Below, piece after piece: positions 9,556 to 64,000 of a stretch of 64,000 bases of DNA. The DNA is taken from positions 362,462 through 426,461 of the forward strand of contig NIVC01000860.1 in the NCBI GenBank assembly GCA_002269645.1, given 5' to 3'. The position numbers were made by a program, and so were the translations under genes. The DNA is from Macrostomum lignano. Its lineage: Eukaryota. The notes beneath the pieces are model-generated. The model had not been told where the DNA came from, made no database searches, and saw nothing but the letters and a program-made list of their open reading frames with translations. Numbering within the stretch: position 1 is the first letter of the stretch; every line of letters starts with the position of its first letter.

Positions 9556-10931
9556 GAGATGAGACCAAGCGGGATCTCACGGTCGTTCAGTAAGCCACAA
9601 AGAGTCCATTTCAATTATGAGATGAGACCAAGCGGGATCTCAAGATCGTTCAGTAAGCCACAAAGAGTCCATTTCAATTATGAGATGAGACCAAGCGGGA
9701 TCTCAAGATCGTTCAGTAAGCCACAAAGAGTCCATTTCAATTATGAGATGAGACCAAGCGGGATCTCAAGGTCGTTCAGTAAGCCACAAAGAGTCCATTT
9801 CAATTATGAGATGAGACCAAGCGGGATCTCAAGGTCGTTCAGTAAGCCACAAAGAGTCCATTTCAATTATGAGATGAGACCAAGCGGGATCTCACGGTCG
9901 TTCAGTAAGCCACAAAGAGTCCATTTCAATTATGAGATGAGACCAAGCGGGATCTCACGGTCATTCAGTAAGCAACAAAGAGTCCATTTCAATTATGAGA
10001 TGAGACCAAGCGGGATCTCAAGGTCGTTCAGTAAGCCACAAAGAGTCCATTTCAATTATGAGATGAGACCAAGCGGGATCTCAAGATCGTTCAGTAAGCC
10101 ACAAAGAGTCCATTTCAATTATGAGATGAGACCAAGCGGAATCTCACGGTCGTTCAGTAAGCCACAAAGAGTCCATTTCAATTATGAGATGAGACCAAGC
10201 GGAATCTCACGGTCGTTCAGTAAGCCACAAAGAGTCCATTTCAATTATGAGATGAGACCAAGCGGAATCTCACGGTCGTTCAGTAAGCCACAAAGAGTCC
10301 ATTTCAATTATGAGATGAGACCAAGCGGGATCTCAAGATCGTTCAGTAAGCCACAAAGAGTCCATTTCAATTATGAGATGAGACCAAGCGGGATCTCAAG
10401 ATCGTTCAGTAAGCCACAAAGAGTCCATTTCAATTATGAGATGAGACCAAGCGGGATCTCAAGGTCGTTCAGTAAGCCACAAAGAGTCCATTTCAATTAT
10501 GAGATGAGACCAAGCGGGATCTCAAGATCGTTCAGTAAGCCACAAAGAGTCCATTTCAATTATGAGATGAGACCAAGCGGGATCTCACGGTCGTTCAGTA
10601 AGCCACAAAGAGTCCATTTCAATTATGAGATGAGACCAAGCGGGATCTCAAGGTCGTTCAGTAAGCCACAAAGAGTCCATTTCAATTATGAGATGAGACC
10701 AAGCGGGATCTCAAGGTCGTTCAGTAAGCCACAAAGAGTCCATTTCAATTATGAGATGAGACCAAGCGGGATCTCAAGGTCGTTCAGTAAGCCACAAATA
10801 GTCCATTTAAATTATGAGATGAGACCAAGCGGGATCTCAAGGTCGTTCAGTAAGCCACAAAGAGTCCATTTGAATTATGAGATGAGACCAAGCGGGATCT
10901 CAAGGTCGTTCAGTAAGCCACAAAGAGTCCA
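9556..10931. repeat. 63-bp tandem array, about 22 highly homogeneous copies
   Basis: Unit GAGATGAGACCAAGCGGGATCTCAAGGTCGTTCAGTAAGCCACAAAGAGTCCATTTCAATTAT; no spacers. Confidence 0.97.
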
Positions 10932-31000: not shown

Positions 31001-34000
31001 GGGCATCCTATAGACATTCAAGCGCACCATAGACACATTTGGGCATCCTATAGATATTCAGGCACACCATAGACACATTTGGGCACCCTATAGACATACA
31101 TGTATTTTAAGGCACCCGATAGACATTTTTAGGCACCCTATAGACATATTTTTAGGCACTTTATAGACACATTTGGGCACTCTATAGACACATTTAGGCA
31201 CACCAGACACATTTGGACACCTTAGAAACACATTTTTAGGCACACTATAGACACATTTGGGCACCCTATAGACCCTATAGACACATAGTTAAGTCGTGGA
31301 CCCATTTTAGCCCCATATAAAAGTTACTCCCCCACTACGGACCCCAATAAGACCCACCGAAGTGATTATAAATCAAAAGCATAGCAATTTCTAAAACAAC
31401 TCATCCAGACCTTAGTAGACGGATTGCTAAACGAGCAGAAGCAGCGCAGCAGGGCTCGCATCCGATCTTTTGAACCCAGACTGTAGGGCACCAATGAGGC
31501 CTTGAAGTGCCGTTCCACTGCTATGCGATCCCAGTTGCTCTCCTAGAAGGCAGGCGACATGTTTAAAAACGATAAATTATATTATTTTCGATACATATCG
31601 GCAACGTTTTTTATTTACTTATCTTAAAGCCTTTTACTATTTTACATTACTCAAATCTCAACTTTTTAATCTCTATTCACTATAGTCATACACATTTTCT
31701 CGTAAATCTATCACAATAAATCCAATTACAAAAATTTCTTTTTTTGATGCTTTAACTCCATCATAGGGATACAGAACTATTTCACTAATCCCAATAATCC
31801 CACTAAGTTCCCCGCCGAAGTCAAATTATCTCACCTCAGAAATCCCACCATCTCCACGCCCCTTAATCCCATCTCCCTAATTCCCACACCCCTATTTCTA
31901 TCTTCTTAATCCTATTTACCTATTCCTATCTTCCTAATACCATCTTCTTAACCGAATATACATAATGCCATCTCGCAAATCCAATCTCCCTAATCGCATC
32001 TTGCAAATCTAATCCCCCTAATCACATCTCGCAAATCCCATCTTCCTAATCACATCTCGCAAATCCCATCTTCCAAATCACATCTCGCTAATCCATTTCC
32101 CTAATCACATCACGCAAATCCAATCTCCCTAATCACATCTCGCAAATCCCATCTTCCTAATCACATCTCGCAAATCCCATCTTCCTAATCACATCTCGCT
32201 AATCCATTTCCCTAATCACATCACGCAAATCCAATCTCCCTAATCACATCTCGCAAATCCCATCTTCCAAATCACATCTCGCTAATCCATTTCCCTAATC
32301 ACATCTCGCTAATCCATTTCCCTAATCACATCTCGCAAATCCCATTTCCCTAATCACATCACGCAAATCCAATCTCCCTAATCACATCTCACAAATCCCA
32401 TCTTCCTAATCACATCTCGCAAATCCCATCTTCCTAATCACATCTCGCTAATCCATTTCCCTAATCACATCTCGCAAATCACATCTCGCAAATCCCATCT
32501 CCCTAATCGCATCTCGCTAATCACATCTGGCTAATTCCATCTCCCTAATCACATCTCCTTAATCACATCTCCTTAATCACATCTCACAAATCCCATCTTC
32601 CTAATCACATCTCGCAAATCCCATCTTCCTAATCACATCTCGCTAATCCATTTCCCTAATCACATCTCGCAAATCCCATCTCCCTAATCGCATCTCGCTA
32701 ATCACATCTGGCTAATTCCATCTCCCTAATCACATCTCCTTAATCACATCTCCTTAATCACATCTCGAAAATCCCATCTCCATAATTCCCAAACCCCTAT
32801 TCCTATCTTCCTAATCCAAAGCAATCTAATCTCTTACCTGGAAGTACATGTGCATGATAGCATTAACGCACTGGGACAGCCTAGACCACACAGTTTTATT
32901 GCCAGACTTAATCAAATCAGCATTCATAATGTAGGTTTTATAGATGCTGGCGAGGCTGGTAAGGGCAGCCCGGCGCACGCCTTGGTCTTTGTCGCGAGAC
33001 CGATCAATTAAAATCGATAGATAGTCCTCCGGCAGGGACTCCAGCTCCTGCTTGGCCAGTTCAACTACTTGTCCAATCACGCAGTCCCTGATGTCCACGT
33101 GGGCGTCAATACTTCGACCGCGGAGCAGCGCAACCAGGGTGTCACGCAGGTCGGGATTCGTTCGCAGCAGCTGAGGGACGGAGGCCACGCAGATTCGCCT
33201 GACCTCCAAGCTGACGTCAACAAATCTACCGATGAAAGCTTTCCACAGATCCGGCTGAAGCTGCACCAGATTGCCGGTGGTCTCGCTGAATAGCTTCGCC
33301 ATAAGTCGGCAGGCCCGCTTCCGTTCGCGCTCGTGATTTGACAGCAGCTTCAGCTCAAGCATGGGCAGCACGGGACTCACGAACACGTGATCAATCTTGT
33401 GCAGCTCATAGATTAATGAGAATACTAATTCGTCTCTGATGCCAGACTGTTGAGACTTGAGCTGCGGCTGCTCATCGGAGTCCTCGGACGAGAGCACGAG
33501 CATATCCTGCAGCATCTGGTGAATCATCTGATCCAGGTGCTTCACAGTTTCCTGCACAATGATAAGTAAGGGTAGGTAAGTAGTAGATTGTGAAACAAGC
33601 TGGTTGGCAACCAACATTTACTTGCCAGGGGCATTAAAACTTGTTGGCAGGGAACCAAAACCGGTTCCCGTTGCCAGGGCGATTTAAACTCGTAGCCAAT
33701 GACACTAGAACCAGTTGCTAATGACACTAGAACCAGTTGCTAATGACACTAGAACCAGTTGCTAATGACACTAGAACCAGTTGCTAATGACACTAGAACC
33801 GGTTGCTAATGACACTAGAGCCGGTTGCTAATGACACTAGAACCGGTTGCTAATGACACTAGAGCCGGTTGCTAATGACACTAGAACCAGTTGCTAATGA
33901 CACTACAATCGGTTGCTAATGACACTAGAACCAGTTGCTAATGCCACTAGAACCGGTTGCTAATGACACTAGAACCGGTTGCTAATGACACTAGAGCCGG

Positions 34001-37000
34001 TTGCTAATGACACTAGAACCGGTTGCTAATGACACTAGAACCAGTTGCTAATGACACTAGAGCCGGTTGCTAATGACACTAGAACCGGTTGCTAATGACA
34101 CTAGAGCCGGTTGCTAATGACACTAGAACCGGTTGCTAACGACACTTGAACCGGTTGCTTAGGACACTAGAACAGGTTGCTAATAACACTACAACCGGTT
34201 GCTAATGACACTAGAACAGGTTACTAATGACACTACAACCGGTCGCTAATGACACTTGAACCGGTTGCTAATGACACTAGAACAGGTTGCTAATGACACT
34301 ACAATCGGTTGCTAATGACACTAGAGCCGGTTGCTTAGGACACCAGAACCGGTTACTTAGGACACCAGAACTGGTTGCTTAGGACACTAGAACCGGTTGC
34401 TTAGGACACCAGAACTGGTTGCTAATGACACTAGAACCGGTTGCTTAGGACACTAGAACCGGTTGCTTAGGACACTAGAACCGGTTGCTAATGACACTAG
34501 AACCGGTCGCTAATGACACTAGAGCCGGTTGCAAATGACACTAGAACCGGTTGCTTAGGACACTAGAACCGTTTGCTAATGACACTAGAACCGGTTGCTT
34601 AGGACACCAGAACCGGTTGCTTAGGACACCAGAGCTGGTTGCTTAGGACACTAGAATCGTTTGCTAATGACACTAGAACCGGTTGCTTAGGACACCAGAA
34701 CCGGTTGCTTAGGACACCAGAACCGGTTGCTTAGGACACCAGAACTGGTTGCTTAGGACACTAGAACCGTTTGCTAATGACACTAGAACCGGTTGCTTAG
34801 GACACCAGAACCGGTTGCTTAGGACACCAGAACTGGTTGCTTAGGACACTAGAACCGGTTGCTTAGGACACCAGAACCGGTTGCTAATGACACTAGAACC
34901 GGTTGCTAATGACACCAGAACCAGTTGCTTAGGACACCAGAACTGGTTGCTAGTGAAACCAGAACCGGTTGCTTAGGACACCAGAACCGGTTGCTTAGGA
35001 CAGCAGAACCGGTTGCTAGTGACACCAGAACCGGTTGCTTAGGACACTAGAACCGGTTGCTTAGGACACTAGAACCGGTTGCTAATGACACTAGAACCAG
35101 TTGCTAATGACACTAGAACCGGTTGCTAATGACACTAGAACCGGTTGCTAATGACACTACAATCGGTTGCTAATGACACTAGAACCGGTTGCTAATGACA
35201 CTACAATCGGTTGCTAATGACACTAGAGCCGGTTACTAATGACACTACAACCGGTCGCTAATGAAACTTGAACCGGTTGCTAATGACACTTGAACCGGTT
35301 GCTAATGACACTAGAACCAGTTGCTAATGACACTTGAACCGGTTGCTTAGGACACTAGAACCGGTTGCTAATGACACTTGAACCGGTTGCTAATGACACT
35401 TGAACCGGTTGCTAATGACACTAGAACCGGTTGCTAATGACACTAGAACCAGTTGCTAATGACACTAGAACCGGTTGCTTAGGACACTTGAACCGGTTGC
35501 TAATGACACTTGAACCGGTTGCTAATGACACTAGAACCAGTTGCTAATGACACTACAATCGGTTGCTAATGACACTAGAACCAGTTGCTAATGACACTAG
35601 AACCAGTTGCTAATGACACTTGAACCGGTTGCTAATGACACTACAACCGGTCGCTAATGACACTTGAACCGGTTGCTAAAGACACTACAATCGGTTGCTA
35701 ATGACACTAGAACCAGTTGCTAATGACACTACAATCGGTTGCTAATGACACTAGAACCAGTTGCTAATGACACTAGAACCAGTTGCTAATGACACTTGAA
35801 CCGGTTGCTAAAGACACTACAATCGGTTGCTAATGACACTAGAACCAGTTGCTAATAACACTACAATCGGTTGCTAATGACACTTGAACCGGTCGCTAAT
35901 GACACTACAATCGGTTGCTTAGGACACTAGAACCGGTTGCTAAAGACACTACAATCGGTTGCTAATGACACTAGAACCAGTTGCTAATGACACTAGAACC
36001 AGTTGCTAATGACACTTGAACCGGTTGCTAAAGACACTACAATCGGTTGCTAATGACACTAGAACCAGTTGCTAAAGACACTACAATCGGTTGCTTAGGA
36101 CACTAGAACCGGTTGCTAATGACACTAGAACCGGTCGCTAATGACACTAGAGCCGGTTGCAAATGACACTAGAACCGGTTGCTAATGACACTAGAGCCGG
36201 TTGCCAGGGACTAGAGAACCTACAGAATTGCTTGCTTAGAACCTCCAAGCTAAATTACCAGTAGAGATTAGAAATTTTACCCGCAAAAGCCGCGAAGCCA
36301 GCTGATAGCAGCGGGGCTCCTGCATCTTCTTCGGTTGAATAATGAACTCGAGCACGTATTTGACGGTGTCAGAGCCTAACAGTTCCATCTCCTCGTCAAC
36401 AACTTTAACAGCGGCATCTAACAGATAGCGAACGCAATCGTCTGGCGTGTCCTCCCAGCTCCAGATGTCCACAGTGCGCACGATGGTGAACAGGAATCGG
36501 AAGAACTCAAAGCAGGCCCGCTTGCCATCCGGATTGGTGTGGCACACGGAGATGAAATCGGTTTGTATCAGGCTCTGACAGAAGTAGGACAGGTTCTGGT
36601 AGGCCACGTCCTCTTTCGATTGGATCTGCGGTGCGGCGATCAGGGGGAAAGGTGTCAGAAAGAGGATTAAGTTTGTCAGATTAGGACAGTAAGACAGTGG
36701 GGTGCCAGATAAGACAGTGGGATGTCAGGAAAGACAGCGGGATGTCAGATAAGACAGTGGGATGTCAGGAAAGACAGCGGGATGTCAGATAAGACAGTGG
36801 GATGTCAGATAAGACAGTGAGATGTCAGGAAAGACAGTGGGACGTCAGATAAGACAGTGGGATGTCAGGAAAGACAGTGGAGTGTCAGATAAGACAGTGG
36901 GATGTCAGGAAAGACAGCGGGATGTCAGATAAGACAGTGGGATGTCAGATAAGACAGTGAGATGTCAGGAAAGACAGTGGGACGTCAGATAAGACAGTGG

Positions 37001-50987: not shown

Positions 50988-56346
<5,359 letters not shown>

Positions 56347-56364: not shown

Positions 56365-56949
56365 GGGAGGAGGGAGCGGAGAGGGGAGCGGAGAGGGGAG
56401 CGGAGAGGGGAGCGGAGAGGGGAGCGGAGAGGGGAGCGGAGAGGGGAGCGGAGAGGGGAGCGGAGAGGGGAGCGGAGAGGGGAGCGGAGAGGGGAGCGGA
56501 GAGGGGAGCGGAGAGGGGAGCGCAGAGGGAGCGCAGAGGGGAGCGGAGAGGGGAGCGGAGAGGGGAGCGGAGAGAGGAGCGGAGAGGGGAGCGGAGAGGG
56601 GAGCGGAGAGGGAGCGGAGAGGGGAGCGGAGAGGGGAGCGGATATGAGGGAAGAGAAAGGAGCTGAAAAGGGAGCGGAGACGGGAACGGAAACGGGAGGA
56701 GAGAGAGGGGAACTGGGAGGAGAACTGAGAGGGGAAGTGAGAGGGGAAGTGACAGGGGAAGTGACAGGGGAAGTGACAGGGGAAGTGACAGGGGAAGTGA
56801 GAGGGGAAGTGACAGGGGAAGTGAGAGGGGAAGTGAGAGGGTGAGTGACAGGGGAAGTGAGAGGGGAAGTGAGAGGGTAAGTGAGAGGGGAAGTGAGAGG
56901 GTAAGTGAGAGGGGAAGTGAGAGGGGAAGTGACAGGGGAAGTGACAGGG
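56365..56949. repeat. 12-bp purine-rich minisatellites GAGAGGGGAGCG and GAGGGGAAGTGA
   Basis: Tandem units; interrupted at 56950 by the LTR. Confidence 0.92.
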
Positions 56950-58024
56950 TGTAGAGTGTTCTACCTCCCGTAAGAAGACATAAAAGTGTTAATGTACTAC
57001 TCACACATTTTATTTAGTAGTAAATTGAAGAGCATGAATAAAGGTATGCTTTGAACTATAAGTATATTCGGACTAACCAATAGGAAGAGAGAGACCTCGA
57101 GCATGCTAATTTTAGAAATCACCCAATCACGTGCGACCAACAACTGTCAATTCAAACCCCACCTTCAAGTCATCATTTTGTTTGCACTCGGGTTGCACCC
57201 GGATGAACCAATCAAAGTCTACCAGCTACGGTAACCAATCATGCGCTTTTACAGTAGACTAGTTGCGCAACTTTCTACCCTGTCATGCTTGACAGCCACC
57301 GAATCGTGACCCTTTGACATTTGCGAAGACAGTGATGTACGACCTCGAGAGAGGTCTGAACGCCTATAAATACAAGTGGTCCGGAACGGACCCGGAGCCA
57401 CAGAATCTCCAAGAGAGAGAAGCTCCGAAGAGGAAGCTCTAGTGAAGCCTTCCTGAAGAAACTCGCGTCGTGGACGAGTTCTTGCGGTAAGCCTTACTCA
57501 TTTGCGCCCGTTGGTTGAGACGTCTCGCTCAAGTCTATTGAGACTTGAGTTTATTTGAGTCTGCTGAGACTCTTGAGTCTGTTTAGACTCCACTGGTTGC
57601 AGTCTCCATAAGGACTGCCCCTGATAGATCTTAGAAGACTATCAGTGGTTTCCGGAGCCATACCTAGAGTGCATAGAGGCACTACTAGAAGGAGTAGGCT
57701 TATATTAAACCGCAGTTTGGCGCAGGGATCCCCATTGTTAATTTGGAAGCTTCCGATTGGTCCGAACTACAGATACCGGCCGGCAAGAAGTCAGAGGACA
57801 AAGGAGATAACGGACCAGATCAACTGTTACCAGGCGCCTAAACTTCCTGAAGGACAGGAAAGTTACTGATCGCGATACTACGGACGAGGATTATTACGAG
57901 AGCTCTCATTTAAGGACTCAAAGGTAATTGAATACCTTCATTTGATTACTGGGTTGCCTAGCTACAGAGCTAGAAGTGATTGTTCCTTGATTACAGTTGA
58001 GGACTGGTAATAAGGAACACATCA
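56950..58024 (+). repeat. 5' LTR (about 1075 bp, TG...CA)
   Basis: Begins TGTAGAG at the abrupt end of the minisatellite and ends ACACATCA 2 nt before a TGG-starting PBS. An alternative end at 57644 is less well supported. The partner LTR is not in the window. Confidence 0.65.
57077..57372 (+). promoter_or_regulatory. LTR U3 promoter: four CCAAT boxes and a TATA box
   Basis: CCAAT at 57077, 57123, 57208 and 57235; TATAAATA at 57365-57372. Confidence 0.65.
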
Positions 58025-58026
58025 AT

Positions 58027-58040
58027 TGGTGATCTCGCCC
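58027..58040 (+). other. Primer-binding site TGGTGATCTCGCCC
   Basis: Complementary to a tRNA 3' end ...GGGCGAGATCA-CCA, which resembles tRNA-Val 3' ends by analogy; tRNA identity not verified. Confidence 0.6.
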
Positions 58041-58718
58041 TCTCGGCACTACTCAAACTTTTGAGTAATAGCCTGGCCAAGCTATTGTAAAGTGACGAAA
58101 GAGCGACTTCATTAATTTTGCGCGCACGTGTTAAAGGTAACACTTTTCGACACTTTTCGATTTTTGTACGATTTGAAACTCGAGTAAAAGTTTAGATATA
58201 CAGGCTTGAGTACCTGTCAATTTTGAGTAACGTTTGAGCACGCGTGTTAAATTTTTGTTTTTAACGAGCTCGAGCAAGAGTAAACCTTAAACAAAACCGA
58301 AAACAACGTCCGGTACACTGAAAACAAACCGAAAAATAATCAATACACACTAAAACAAAACCGAAATTAAAAACACTTGACGAAAGCTAAAACAAACCGA
58401 AATTTGATAAAACGTGACAAGGCACGTCACGAAGACAAGAAAGGCCTTTGAAAAAAGCAAGAAGCAGCTGCACTTCAAGCACTTTAAAGATACACTTTGC
58501 GGACGCCGCATAAGTGCGAAAATCAGCCAGCGAATAAGAGGTCCGAAAAAGCAGCCAAAAGCCGAATTCCGTTCAAGGTCAGACATAACAAATTGAGGTG
58601 TCAAAAGCGCGCGAGACAATCAGTTACAACCGAAGTTTATTTCGAAAGAAACACCACACTGGAAGATCCATTACAAATCGACCCAGACCTAGAGCTACCG
58701 TTCTATCCCATCAACAAC

Positions 58719-59700
58719 ATGGCGCGGCGCAATCCAACGGTGCACAGAGATATCAAAGAGACAGTTGGCACCTTTTCTATGGAAAAGACTTTAACACCTT
58801 TGTTGATCATTTTGACCTGGTATGTAGGGAATACAACCTACAAAATCCAGAAAAAGCGCAACTGTTGCCACCACTCCTCCAAGGCACTGCACGAGAGATT
58901 TATGGTAAACTAGATGCGGCAACACAGCAAAACTACCCAGCATTAATCATTCAACTGCGCGCGCATTTCAACCGCTGTGGCACAAACAGATCAGTGCTAC
59001 TGCACAAGTTGCATAACAGAAGGATGCAGCCAACCGAATCCTTCCTGACCTTTGTGGACGACATCCGTCAGATAATTAAGGCACTGCATCAGCCAACACT
59101 GCCAGCTGCAGACCAACCACCTCTGGGTGCGGCAGAATTAGCCGCTAGAGAGCGACAGCGATTGATGGATCGCGAACAAAATCTGATTCTGCACGTAATA
59201 AACAATGCACAGCCGTCACTCCGAGATAGACTTCTACGCGAAAACATTGAAACCGAGGAAGACCTTTTACGGTGCGGAATGCAGTGGGAAGCAAGCGCTC
59301 CACTAATGACAACCGGCAACACAGAAGTGCAGAAATGACACAGCAACTAAACAAACTGATGCAACATCAAACAGCCGTTATCGCCGAACAAAAAAGACGA
59401 AATGAACGAGCCCAAGCCAGATGCTATTACTGTGGACGAGAAGGACACTACCAAATTAATTGTCCTCATCGGTCAACAAGAAATGATATGCCGCGACAGC
59501 CATTCAACAGACGGAAGCCGCAAAAACCATGGCAACAGCATCAAAATTGGCAGCAGCAAAACACGAAACGCTTAGGAAACAATGGCTACAGACCGCGAAA
59601 CACCAGATACATGCCCAAGCAACCAACGCAAGCGATGCAACGATATGCAAACGCCATCACGTACACACCGGAAAGCGAACAGCAAGAGCAGCAAGTCTTC
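58719..59700 (+). CDS. gag: Gag (capsid-like region plus CCHC zinc knuckle), with frameshifts near 58775 and about 59310
   Basis: MARRNPTVHRDIKETVGTF / GKDFNTFVDHFDLVC..KAQLLPPLLQGTAREIY..NYPALIIQLRAHF..LHNRRMQPTESFLTFVDDIR; CYYCGREGHYQINC at 59422-59463. Confidence 0.85.
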
Positions 59701-60351
59701 ACGATAGACGACTTGGAAATGGACTTCACTATCAATGAAATCGACTGGCTCGATGTGGAGAGCAGCGAAAAGACAAAAAACATCAGCATGGTCGAAATGA
59801 AAGAAACTAACATTGACAGCGAAGAAGAAAAGACAGAAGTGAGCACAGAAAAAACATTGCCAAGCGACATCAGTGAAAGAAAAGAAGAAACAAACAAAGG
59901 CAACGACAAAGAACTGGCAACGAAGGATGACAACGAAAGAAGCAACGACGGAAATGCAGAGATGGAAGAAGAACAGCAAGAAGAAAGCAGCGATCACGAT
60001 TATGAGATGCACAATGATGCTGATGACAACCGAGCCGCCGACAAAGAACATGAAGACGGAAGGCACAAAGGAATGGAAGAAAGAAATCTAAGCTCCGACA
60101 GCGATCAATGCTACGAGATCCGCTATAAACGAAATGGTGAAGCCTACATCCAAACGGTCGACTACAAGGCCGAAGTGAGGTACCGCAGACAATGGAGTGA
60201 CACAACTACAACATCGGAAGAAAGCAAGGAAGAAAATGATGAAGACGACAAGCAGCGGAACGAATCGGATGCCTTGCGCTCGGAAACGCCAATGGAACAA
60301 GAGGAAGAATACGATGCGGACGCAGAAGATAACGAATGGCAGCCGCAGCCA

Positions 60352-62298
60352 ATGCCAGCAAAGACAACGGCAACGTTCAGAAAATGGCGATTCTGGATAT
60401 TCTGGATCATCATAATACTACTGACGGCAGTAGTCACCAAAGCAACAGCAATGGAGAAACCAATGATATGTCCAACGGATGCGCATATCCAACCGATGAT
60501 CTACAAGATACCAACCGACATCAAATGCAGCTACTTCAAGACAAATCAGACGAAGCCAAAGAAGATCACAATTGATCTCTACAAAGCTAACATCAAGAAG
60601 CATCGACAACTCGGAATAGTGTGCTTTAGAGACAAGCACCTAGTGGAAAAAGTTTGGCGAGGACAGTGGAACAGAATTCGATTTTGGCAACACGAACTAC
60701 ATGTGTCGCACGCTGAATGTCTACAATGGAACCAAACACTGTTCTCAAAGGATGGTCAGCTAGAACCGGATGAGAAAGTGGGGGAGGCACAACTTTACCG
60801 AACGAAGAACTCAGCAAACGGACGATATGTACACTTTTCGGAAGCATGGACTAACTACATGACACGAAACAGTTACCTAATCAGGAATATTCCATTCTAC
60901 CACAATCCTTTTGAAAAAATGGAGTCGCTACAACTGCAATTAAGTGACTGCCGATACAGCAAAGGATGGTGTCCAACGCCGATACTGCGGAATGAGGAAC
61001 TATACAGCTTACCGTTGAGTCCAACATATCATCAAGACTATCGATGGCAAATTATACGCAGAGGCGACTCACGATATGAAGAACCATCTAAGTCACGACA
61101 ATACTTCTTCGCGTGGGAAGTTGAGCCGGAAATTGACTGCAAGCTTCAAAAGTATCACACAGTTGAAGGAGGTCTACTGTCAAACACGTTTTTGGCAAAG
61201 TCAGGAGACTTGGCACTGACGTTTCAAAAGAAACCAGTCGAGCAAAAACTGAAATGCAAGGATACAGACAAGACACTATTCATCTCGGAACAAGAGATAC
61301 CAGTCTACGTAAAAGAGACGACAAACAAACCTTTCTGGCGATCATCAACGGAACGTATCAACAGCAGGAACAACAGAACAGACGACGACGAGACATCGAA
61401 CGTCCCAAACTGGTGTCAAACCGACTACTGTCAGCAAAGATAACGGCTTTGGATCAAATCTACACAACCAGTTAAACCACTTGCATCGAACACTGGTCCA
61501 GCTAACTTGCAAAATGCACGCAATCAACTTAAATTATGCCAGACAAAACTACTATGTCAACCCTACGATGACTTTTCGTAAAATCACCGGAATGACGAAC
61601 GTTTTGGCAGTTCCAATATACGAGCATCTGTTGATATACAAGTGCACGCCGATACAGCACTTTAACATCTTGCCGTCGAACACGTCAACAACCTGCTACG
61701 ATAAGCCAAGGATTGAAGCGTTCTACGAAGGAAAACGAATTCAAGGATTCTTGGACACGGTACACAACATCATCGTTGGCACCGCAATACGAGACCTTGC
61801 ACCACGGCAGCAAACTACTATCAACTGGACAATGCACTACACGTCATCAAAACAACTGGAACGACAGCAAACATCACAGAACCGGAAGTAATCGTCGACG
61901 AAAACTACGACATGGAGGATTTGAAAATCCGATTCAACAGAACGAAGTATACGCCATTCGCCGATATCCAACTTGACGAGATAACACCAGGATGGACGAT
62001 CAACGACTTCTTGCAAGCGTTCATCACCCAACGCAAGATGATTCACCAGCTGTTCACAAGAAAGGACAAAGGAACCGGGACAGGAAGATTTCCCGTCCTT
62101 GTTTCAATGGACAGCGCCATCAAATCATTTTGGACAAACAGCTTCTGGGAGCTGCTCAATGGAAGAGGCAGTCTCTATCAAGGATTCATCTTCTACGGTG
62201 CTTGCATTGTGTGGATTGTCACGGCAATCTTCATCATTTCGTCGATCGTACGGTGCTTCAGTCAAACTTGTCCAAGAGCTAAGAAGACAGTAATGCCA
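60352..62298 (+). CDS. env: Env-like type I membrane glycoprotein, probably class III viral fusogen-like; frameshifted near 61330, 61470 and 61795
   Basis: Signal-like MPAKTTATFRKWRFWIFWIIIILLTAVVTKATA; Cys-rich ectodomain including DCRYSKGWCP and TCYDKP; several N-x-S/T sequons; polybasic RRRR at 61380-61391; TM segment FIFYGACIVWIVTAIFIISSIV at about 62184-62250. Confidence 0.8.
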
Positions 62299-62521
62299 TA
62301 ATGCAAAGAACGACAACGGAAGGCGACAACAGTTTAGAACTAACAGAAACTGCACATCGTGAGGTTCAAGGGCAACCGACACTAGCAACGCGGCTATATC
62401 CATCGATTCCGACAACACCAACGGCACCAAGAATACAACCACCAACTATCAAGCAGAACAGCAAGACCCAAAATGGCCAGAGAACTACGTATGTACTCTA
62501 CACGCCGAAATTGGCAAAGCA

Positions 62522-64000
62522 ATGGCTCAAGTGGTAATCAACAATCTACCATGTCGAGCGCTACTCGACTCCGGCAGCTCCATCACAGTTATATCAAAAC
62601 AACTGTGCAACAAGCTACGACTTGCTCTACGGCCAGCAACAATCGCAGTTGCAGGAGCAGGAGGACATTCGCTAAACATTCTGGGAAAAGCCGACATTGA
62701 TTTAAGAATCGCTAATAAACATTTGACAGTTCCAACGTACGTCATCGACAGACTCCCAAACCAGGACGTTATTGTTGGCATCGACACGTTCAAGCAGCTT
62801 CGACTACCATTGACCTTCGACTTCAATAAGCAAACGTTCAAGATCGACTCGGTAGAACAACCATTGATCAACCAGATCTCGAGTACTACCAAAAGTAACA
62901 TTGCAACAAGATGTCTCATCCAACCGGAGAGCGCCTGCTGGATAAAGGCAAAGGCAACTAACGCAACGGAGGAAGCAATGATATTCGACCCAAACAGAAG
63001 AGTCACGGCTAAACACCAAATTATAATGCCTACGGCACTAGTGCTGGTTGCAAAAGATAAACAGCTGCCAGTACAAATATTCAACCCGAACACAGAAACG
63101 GTTCATCTACGACAAGGAATGTGCATCGGTCATCTCAACACCCAAGCATCGGTTATGCTGATTGAGCAAGCGACTCCACGACTAACAGAGGAAGAATTTC
63201 AAAAGAAGATCAATTTGGATGACAGCCCGATTACGGAACAGCAAAAGAGGAAAGTTCGACAGCTGTTGTGGAAGTACAACGACGCTTTCTGCCACCATGA
63301 CTACGACATCGGACGAGCAAGGACATCAAACAGGAAATCAAACTTCTGCCGCACACGGAACCAATTCAGTGCAAACCGTACCCGATCGCCAAGCATCTGC
63401 AACAGCACTTCGATGAGATTATCGACAAAATGCTGAAACACGGCATCATCAGCAAAGCCATTTCAGCATACTCCATCACCATGTCTCTTGGTGCAAAAGA
63501 AGGAGACTAACGAAAGACGACTCGTATGTGACTTCAGACTACTGAACAAGTACATACCGACGGATCAGCAAAGCCTACGAAGATCTCCGAACTACTAGCA
63601 AAGCTCAACACGGCAAAATTGTTCACAGTGTTCGACCTACGTCATGGATTTTGGCAAATTGAAATCGAGAAAGAGTCACGACAGTACACGGCTTTAAAAC
63701 CTACAATGGACAAGTATACGAGTACAATCGATCGCCGATGGGACTCAGCAACAGCCCAGCAACGATGCCGACTAACAGCATACATGCTTGCAGGATGCAC
63801 GAACCTGTTGCACTATGTTGACGACATCTTGGCCTACGGAGAAGACTTCAACGACTCTATGAAGCTACGGAGAAGGCCCTAGCGCTCATTCAACGCCAAG
63901 GTCTTAAGCTGCAACCGACGATGCAAATTTCTTCCGAGACAACGTACGTTACCTAGGACACCAAGTGACAGCCAAAGGATTCTCACCGACCCAGACAACG
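62522..64000 (+). CDS. pol: Pol: aspartic protease and reverse transcriptase (partial, frameshifted)
   Basis: RALLDSGSSITVIS (DSG at 62567), VIVGIDTF flap-distal motif, EPIQCKPYP, RLVCDFRLLN, FDLRHGFWQI, YVDD at 63814-63825. Confidence 0.93.

Follow-up and report, generated by a model that had tools for sequence, protein, structure and literature searches.

A 64,000-nucleotide stretch of the Macrostomum lignano genome (assembly GCA_002269645.1, contig NIVC01000860.1, positions 362,462 to 426,461; hereafter the window) ends inside a young, multi-copy Ty3/gypsy long terminal repeat (LTR) element that carries an env gene of the herpesvirus glycoprotein B (gB) type between gag and pro-pol. Our reading, to which we give a probability of about 0.7, is that this is a recently transposing GAG-ENV-POL errantivirus whose proteins are made as one membrane-threading polyprotein, processed and budded as proposed below. 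The element possesses one reading frame, which is under purifying selection along its length, a gB-like Env flanked by a hydrophobic segment on each side, and a leader that lacks AUG. All features described are on the forward strand.

In the window the frame is stop-free from 59251 to 61443 (730 codons) and includes a CCHC knuckle (59422) and an acidic spacer, then a hydrophobic segment and the N-terminal half of the ectodomain. This agrees with the original prediction, which described an uninterrupted open reading frame (ORF; 59272-61443) running from the knuckle through a hydrophobic segment ending in A-T-A into an ectodomain, although its ends need correction: position 59272 is a GTG and not a start, and approximately the first 28 and last 40 codons are off-frame read-through beside breaks in the window copy. 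The open linker between knuckle and signal is not a chance occurrence, since it was stop-free in none of 20,000 base shuffles, and the other two frames hold 6 and 17 stops. Both hydrophobic segments said to bracket the ectodomain are present (60397 and 62182), but the second lies in another frame piece of the window copy (61717-62301), as does a furin-like RRRR motif (61380, in piece 61167-61475), and the window alone therefore cannot show the whole chain.

A genome search gave 21 near-full-length places at 96-100% identity, from which 20 copies were analysed, and a second search identified a sister subfamily (approximately 90% identical) that accounts for 19 of 40 matches, nine of which were analysed. 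Among the 20 copies there are 52 broken intervals, comprising 51 frame changes and a single same-frame stop (0.525 per kb); these are scattered and none is common to most copies. The region from knuckle to signal is open in 12 of 20 copies (12.0 expected from the break rate), and gag to reverse transcriptase (RT) lies in one natural frame in two (1.4 expected); L009 was not counted as open, as it shows no counted break but has two unresolved intervals and falls into two frames in another comparison. In the sister subfamily gag to RT is in one frame in five of nine copies and gag to integrase in four, and the segment from the transmembrane (TM) anchor to the protease is open in all nine. The proposed single frame from gag through pol is thus present in natural copies of both subfamilies as well as in more distant relatives, and no stop between gag, env and pol is shared by most copies. 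The breaks scattered along the window copy point to assembly error, because only one of its seven broken intervals recurs in L002, where the same insertion was assembled a second time (left flank 98.8% identical over 1202 nt), and because short-read contigs from all four sequencing runs are unlike the window in length at several breaks.

Copies differ from one another mostly by synonymous changes in all parts of the frame, with ratios of non-synonymous to synonymous changes (pN/pS) of 0 to 0.33. Gag shows 30 synonymous and no non-synonymous changes, the acidic spacer has a pN/pS of 0.33 and the N-terminal half of the ectodomain 0.07. Related proteins gave 53 matches, of which the 24 long ones were scanned; in ten of these a single chain unites env and protease with a gag marker, and in six of the ten it also holds RT. 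The single-chain relatives include a nematode protein, from Globodera rostochiensis (P0063).

The ectodomain (60451..62181) is interrupted by three broken intervals in the window copy. Its match to the profile PF24664 is below cut-off, and a profile built from its relatives matches gB by sequence. The predicted fold of the unaltered ectodomain of copy P0003 has a mean predicted local distance difference test score (pLDDT) of 78 and finds gB of Kaposi's sarcoma-associated herpesvirus as its best match (E 4.9e-22, 13% identity); by this model the ectodomain folds as a class III, gB-type protein. It is followed by the TM anchor (62182..62238), where hydropathy (KD19) reaches 2.43 at 62182, and then by basic residues and cysteines.

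Upstream, the leader (57395..58718, from just past the TATA box to the start of gag) contains no ATG in 1324 nt, compared with 22.6 in shuffles, whereas the U3 region preceding it contains 8 against 7.0. The ATG at 58719, kept in all 20 copies, is therefore the first start. Gag (58719..59658), which is broken twice in the window copy, comprises approximately 235 residues before a single CCHC knuckle and ends at a putative viral-protease site (59647-59658); a separate matrix domain was not recognised. An acidic spacer of around 230 residues (59659..60351), which would lie on the cytosolic side, leads to the putative internal signal sequence (60352..60450). This has a methionine at 60352, a basic n-region, a hydrophobic core (KD19 of 2.19 at 60397) and A-T-A at 60450. 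In relatives the internal signal is followed by a P-M-I-C-like start, and the side that would be cytosolic is positively charged in 13 of 15.

The motif [VIA][NC][AQT][IL] occurs five times in the long frame, each time at a domain junction: after the nucleocapsid, shortly past the TM anchor, on either side of the protease, and between RNase H and integrase. Its strict form [VA]NAI is found three times, where shuffles give 0.06, and the sister subfamily retains all five sites. This recurrence suggests that the motif marks sites of the viral protease. The second and third sites delimit a tail piece of 67 residues between Env anchor and protease (62283..62500), which holds LYPSI (62394), PTAP (62418) and PPNY, and thus all three classes of late-domain motif (PMC8402826); the PPxY of other copies is interrupted by a break in the window. 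Thirty relatives were compared over the corresponding stretch from TM to protease, where P[TS]AP was counted 6 times (0.25 expected), [LI]YPx[LI] 4 times (0.14) and PPxY 3 times (0.63), whereas the rest of these relatives (33,333 residues) contains 5, 0 and 4 respectively. Twelve control linkers yielded one late-domain-like motif, with 1.0 expected. Pairs of motif-carrying relatives are mostly 18-33% identical, with one pair at 48%. A more distant family named from M. lignano (P0014), a single chain of 2852 aa about 30% identical, likewise has PSAP and LYPTL past its TM anchor; another relative (P0013) is 54% identical.

The topology, cleavages and budding that we infer would proceed as follows. 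Ribosomes would scan to 58719 and make Gag in the cytosol, after which the internal signal would open translocation into the endoplasmic reticulum, with signal peptidase cutting after A-T-A. The TM anchor would stop transfer, and tail, protease, RT and integrase would be made in the cytosol. A polyprotein of about 2,450-2,500 residues would in this way give two membrane-bound chains, Gag-spacer-signal anchor and Env-tail-Pol. The signal anchor would hold the capsid, for which no matrix domain is recognised, on the membrane, and the LYPxI/PTAP/PPxY piece on the Env chain would recruit the endosomal sorting complexes required for transport (ESCRT) for budding. Cuts by the viral protease at the junction motif would then detach Gag, leave Env with a tail of about 20 residues and set the enzymes free, and a furin-type cut at RRRR would prime the fusogen. 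The original prediction had Pol tethered to the glycoprotein tail. Pol would indeed be tied to Env, and not to Gag, once signal peptidase has cut, but this link would probably not last, as the tail piece has protease-like sites on both sides. Because a frameshift in env would also abolish Pol, env would be kept under selection.

Several observations weigh against this scheme. An output of Gag, Env and Pol at 1:1:1 is awkward for a capsid. The cleavage motif was chosen as a pattern after these sequences had been seen, and the start of RT yielded no site of this kind. Even with looser patterns only 11 of 30 relatives carry a late-domain-like motif in the tail segment and 19 do not; a heuristic placed the limits of these segments, and a Pao element is among the rows. 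A YPAL motif is also present inside Gag. The TM-to-protease segment is open in only 12 of the 20 window-subfamily copies, against 16.4 expected, and these copies are not all independent, two being duplicated insertions. Introns may be concealed in some of the database relatives, which are gene models. Finally, the methionine at 60352 is kept in all 20 copies and in the sister subfamily, and initiation there would give an ordinary 33-residue signal peptide.

This last point also speaks for an alternative that accepts the single frame but derives most Env, or Env-Pol, from a spliced or internally started RNA beginning at Met 60352; the full polyprotein would then be made in minor amounts or serve mainly to supply Gag. 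Such a route would ease the stoichiometry, and an apparently working donor is present in the LTR. We nevertheless regard it as unlikely: the linker from knuckle to signal remains open and shows selection, a methionine in the 30 residues ahead of the hydrophobic core occurs in only 5 of 15 relatives (chance would give 6.9), and none of the AG sites before 60352 stands out, with 1-7 pyrimidines in 15 nt compared with 7 at the LTR acceptor. As for the subgenomic env RNA from the donor at 57487 that had been suggested earlier, that donor was seen joined to 57772 within the LTR, in one contig with a 22-nt side, and not to env. No joint from the LTR donor to env is among those listed, and contigs are unbranched over 59379-60498 and 61384-62463, but we do not use this as evidence because contigs drop rare forms.

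The stoichiometry also enters a second alternative, in which the topology is as we describe but the late-domain-like motifs send surplus Env-Pol to multivesicular bodies to be destroyed, or drive budding only into internal compartments, so that no infectious particles leave the cell. ESCRT motifs also sort cargo for degradation, equimolar Env and Pol would be in excess, and the 19 relatives without motifs fit this view. It seems rather improbable to us, since a full gB fold with a furin-like site is under strong selection (pN/pS 0.07), and all three motif classes are packed into about 25 residues, resembling retroviral late domains with several motifs (PMC8402826). Least probable is a programmed frameshift just past the TM anchor that would separate env and pol, the read-through copies being variants. 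The interval from TM to tail is broken in 7 of 20 copies, a larger share than for any other interval, but the remaining 13 and all nine sister copies are open there. Short-read contigs of all four runs, at full depth, differ there in length from the window, and a slippery heptamer of the scanned pattern is not found in the interval.

GAG-ENV-POL errantiviruses with an env of HSV/gB type (HSV, herpes simplex virus) have been reported from nematodes, bryozoans and flatworms (Chary & Hayashi, eLife 2026, PMC13524379), and do not form one clade. That work lists Platyhelminthes_Rhabditophora_Mlig_errantivirus_2 with 16 copies, an LTR spacing of 9727 and a 12-nt primer binding site (PBS). Our element has the same gene order, with env between gag and pol and an HSV/gB-type ectodomain between signal and TM anchor, a Ty3/gypsy pol, the identical 12-nt PBS with the same 2-nt gap from the LTR, and many copies in Macrostomum; its nearest named proteins are from M. 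lignano (97% over the env part). The published spacing is close but equal to that of neither subfamily (9594-9632 in most of the window's subfamily, 9742-9759 in the sister). By these characters the element is either a member of the Mlig_errantivirus_2 family or closely allied to it as a sister. The terms 'single ORF', 'polyprotein', 'frameshift', 'in-frame', 'splic' and 'fused' do not occur in the available main text of PMC13524379, whose figures might show the frame, and the available part of PMC4604429 does not describe the element.

Nematode endogenous retroviruses (NERV) also place Env before pol (Sacco et al. 2022, J Gen Virol, doi 10.1099/jgv.0.001739, as cited in PMC13524379). Our element differs from them in host phylum and falls outside the nematode host clade. 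The NERV work is reported to describe a continuous gag-env-pro-pol ORF, a feature that the element shares; a single frame is therefore probably known for nematodes, and topology may be treated there as well. Atlas virus (Belpaoviridae; bioRxiv 10.64898/2026.03.22.711591) likewise has a single polyprotein holding Gag, Pol and a viral fusogen. Unlike our element, it has Env last, so that Pol stays on the Gag chain, its fusogen is of class II and it belongs to the Pao lineage. In flavivirus, hepacivirus and alphavirus polyproteins, and with the Env leader peptide of foamy viruses, the signal of the next protein anchors the capsid, and host signal peptidase acts together with a viral protease. The element would work like these systems, and like the short ESCRT-binding motifs of retroviral p6/p9 (PMC8402826), no homology being claimed; its late-domain-like piece lies past the Env anchor, in contrast to p6/p9, where it lies in Gag.

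The gene order is thus already published (PMC13524379). What may be new is the predicted map of processing, together with the piece of the Env tail that carries the late-domain-like motifs; neither was found in the titles and abstracts searched on gag-env-pol elements and retrotransposon late domains. If both hold, Pol and budding signals would travel with Env. We would propose only tentatively, at somewhat less than even odds, that GAG-ENV-POL elements use an assembly plan, undescribed for reverse-transcribing viruses in the literature searched, in which the capsid is held on the membrane by the Env signal anchor and Pol and ESCRT-recruiting late domains ride on the Env tail. Under such a plan budding could not be separated from enzyme packaging and the fusogen, and each transposition would involve an enveloped particle. 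The element bears on whether retrotransposons with gB-type env outside insects form infectious particles, and on how a gag-env-pol order can be expressed. As the family is young and multi-copy and, judging by its named relatives, belongs to a laboratory flatworm, its RNA, proteins and particles are open to direct study in nature's own form, and the cleavages and late-domain piece predicted here define precise peptides and interactions to seek.

The 5' LTR (56950..58024; 1075 bp, TG...CA) has a TATA box at 57365 and is preceded by the left copy of a 4-bp target site (AGGG, 56946-56949). The PBS (58027..58038), 2 nt past the LTR, is kept in 19 of 19 other copies. LTRs of TG...CA form, PBS and target-site duplication agree with Ty3/gypsy (Metaviridae), as do, in other copies, the pol order of protease, RT, RNase H and integrase and a GPF/Y motif past the integrase core. 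LTR pairs of 17 other copies are 99.2-100% identical, five of them identical over their full length, and most copies have 4-bp target-site duplications, from which we take the insertions to be young. A putative GT..AG intron within the LTR (57487..57772) is seen in one contig with a 22-nt side, from one run guessed to be RNA, and the joint is absent from the other three of four runs; a run of this kind gives no firm indication of expression. This intron spans an ATTAAA at 57704, and one might speculate that its splicing could stop the 5' LTR from ending transcripts early.

The window copy runs to the contig end inside RT, so that protease and RT (62501..64000; L-D-S-G at 62564, YVDD at 63814) are cut short. 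Between them (62800-63300) lies a domain of about 160 residues with no convincing Pfam match, in a position that we take to resemble that of dUTPase-like inserts. Copies with an LTR spacing of about 10,790-10,810 carry extra ORFs past pol (L026:4572-5240 and L026:5295-5933, also in L038); the first is also present in L072, L076 and L084, and shorter copies keep only its remnant. The two ORFs encode proteins rich in cysteine (222 and 212 aa) that match RING only weakly (PF21362, below cut-off), and the first of these proteins begins Met-Gly, like a myristoylation signal. 'RING' as a whole word is not found in the available part of PMC5408684.

Contigs from three of the four runs, DNA included, join window position 58024 to 61213 (LTR end to mid-env), a deleted form lacking primer site, gag and half of env, which was not found among the genome loci examined. 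The 96% genome matches were at one point suspected to be this form and proved to be the full-length sister subfamily. Other variants include two tandem copies with a common LTR (G000:C669:4791-22619), one copy with about 1 kb extra inside pol (L015/L036) and one in which both LTRs lack about 125 nt near the 5' end (L016). In the window the element lies within a purine-rich satellite, downstream of and in the same orientation as a cyclic-nucleotide phosphodiesterase gene (PF00233) with exons at 55213-55530 and approximately 55900-55970, and a further tandem array, at 33540-36000, consists of about 114 copies of a 22-nt unit.

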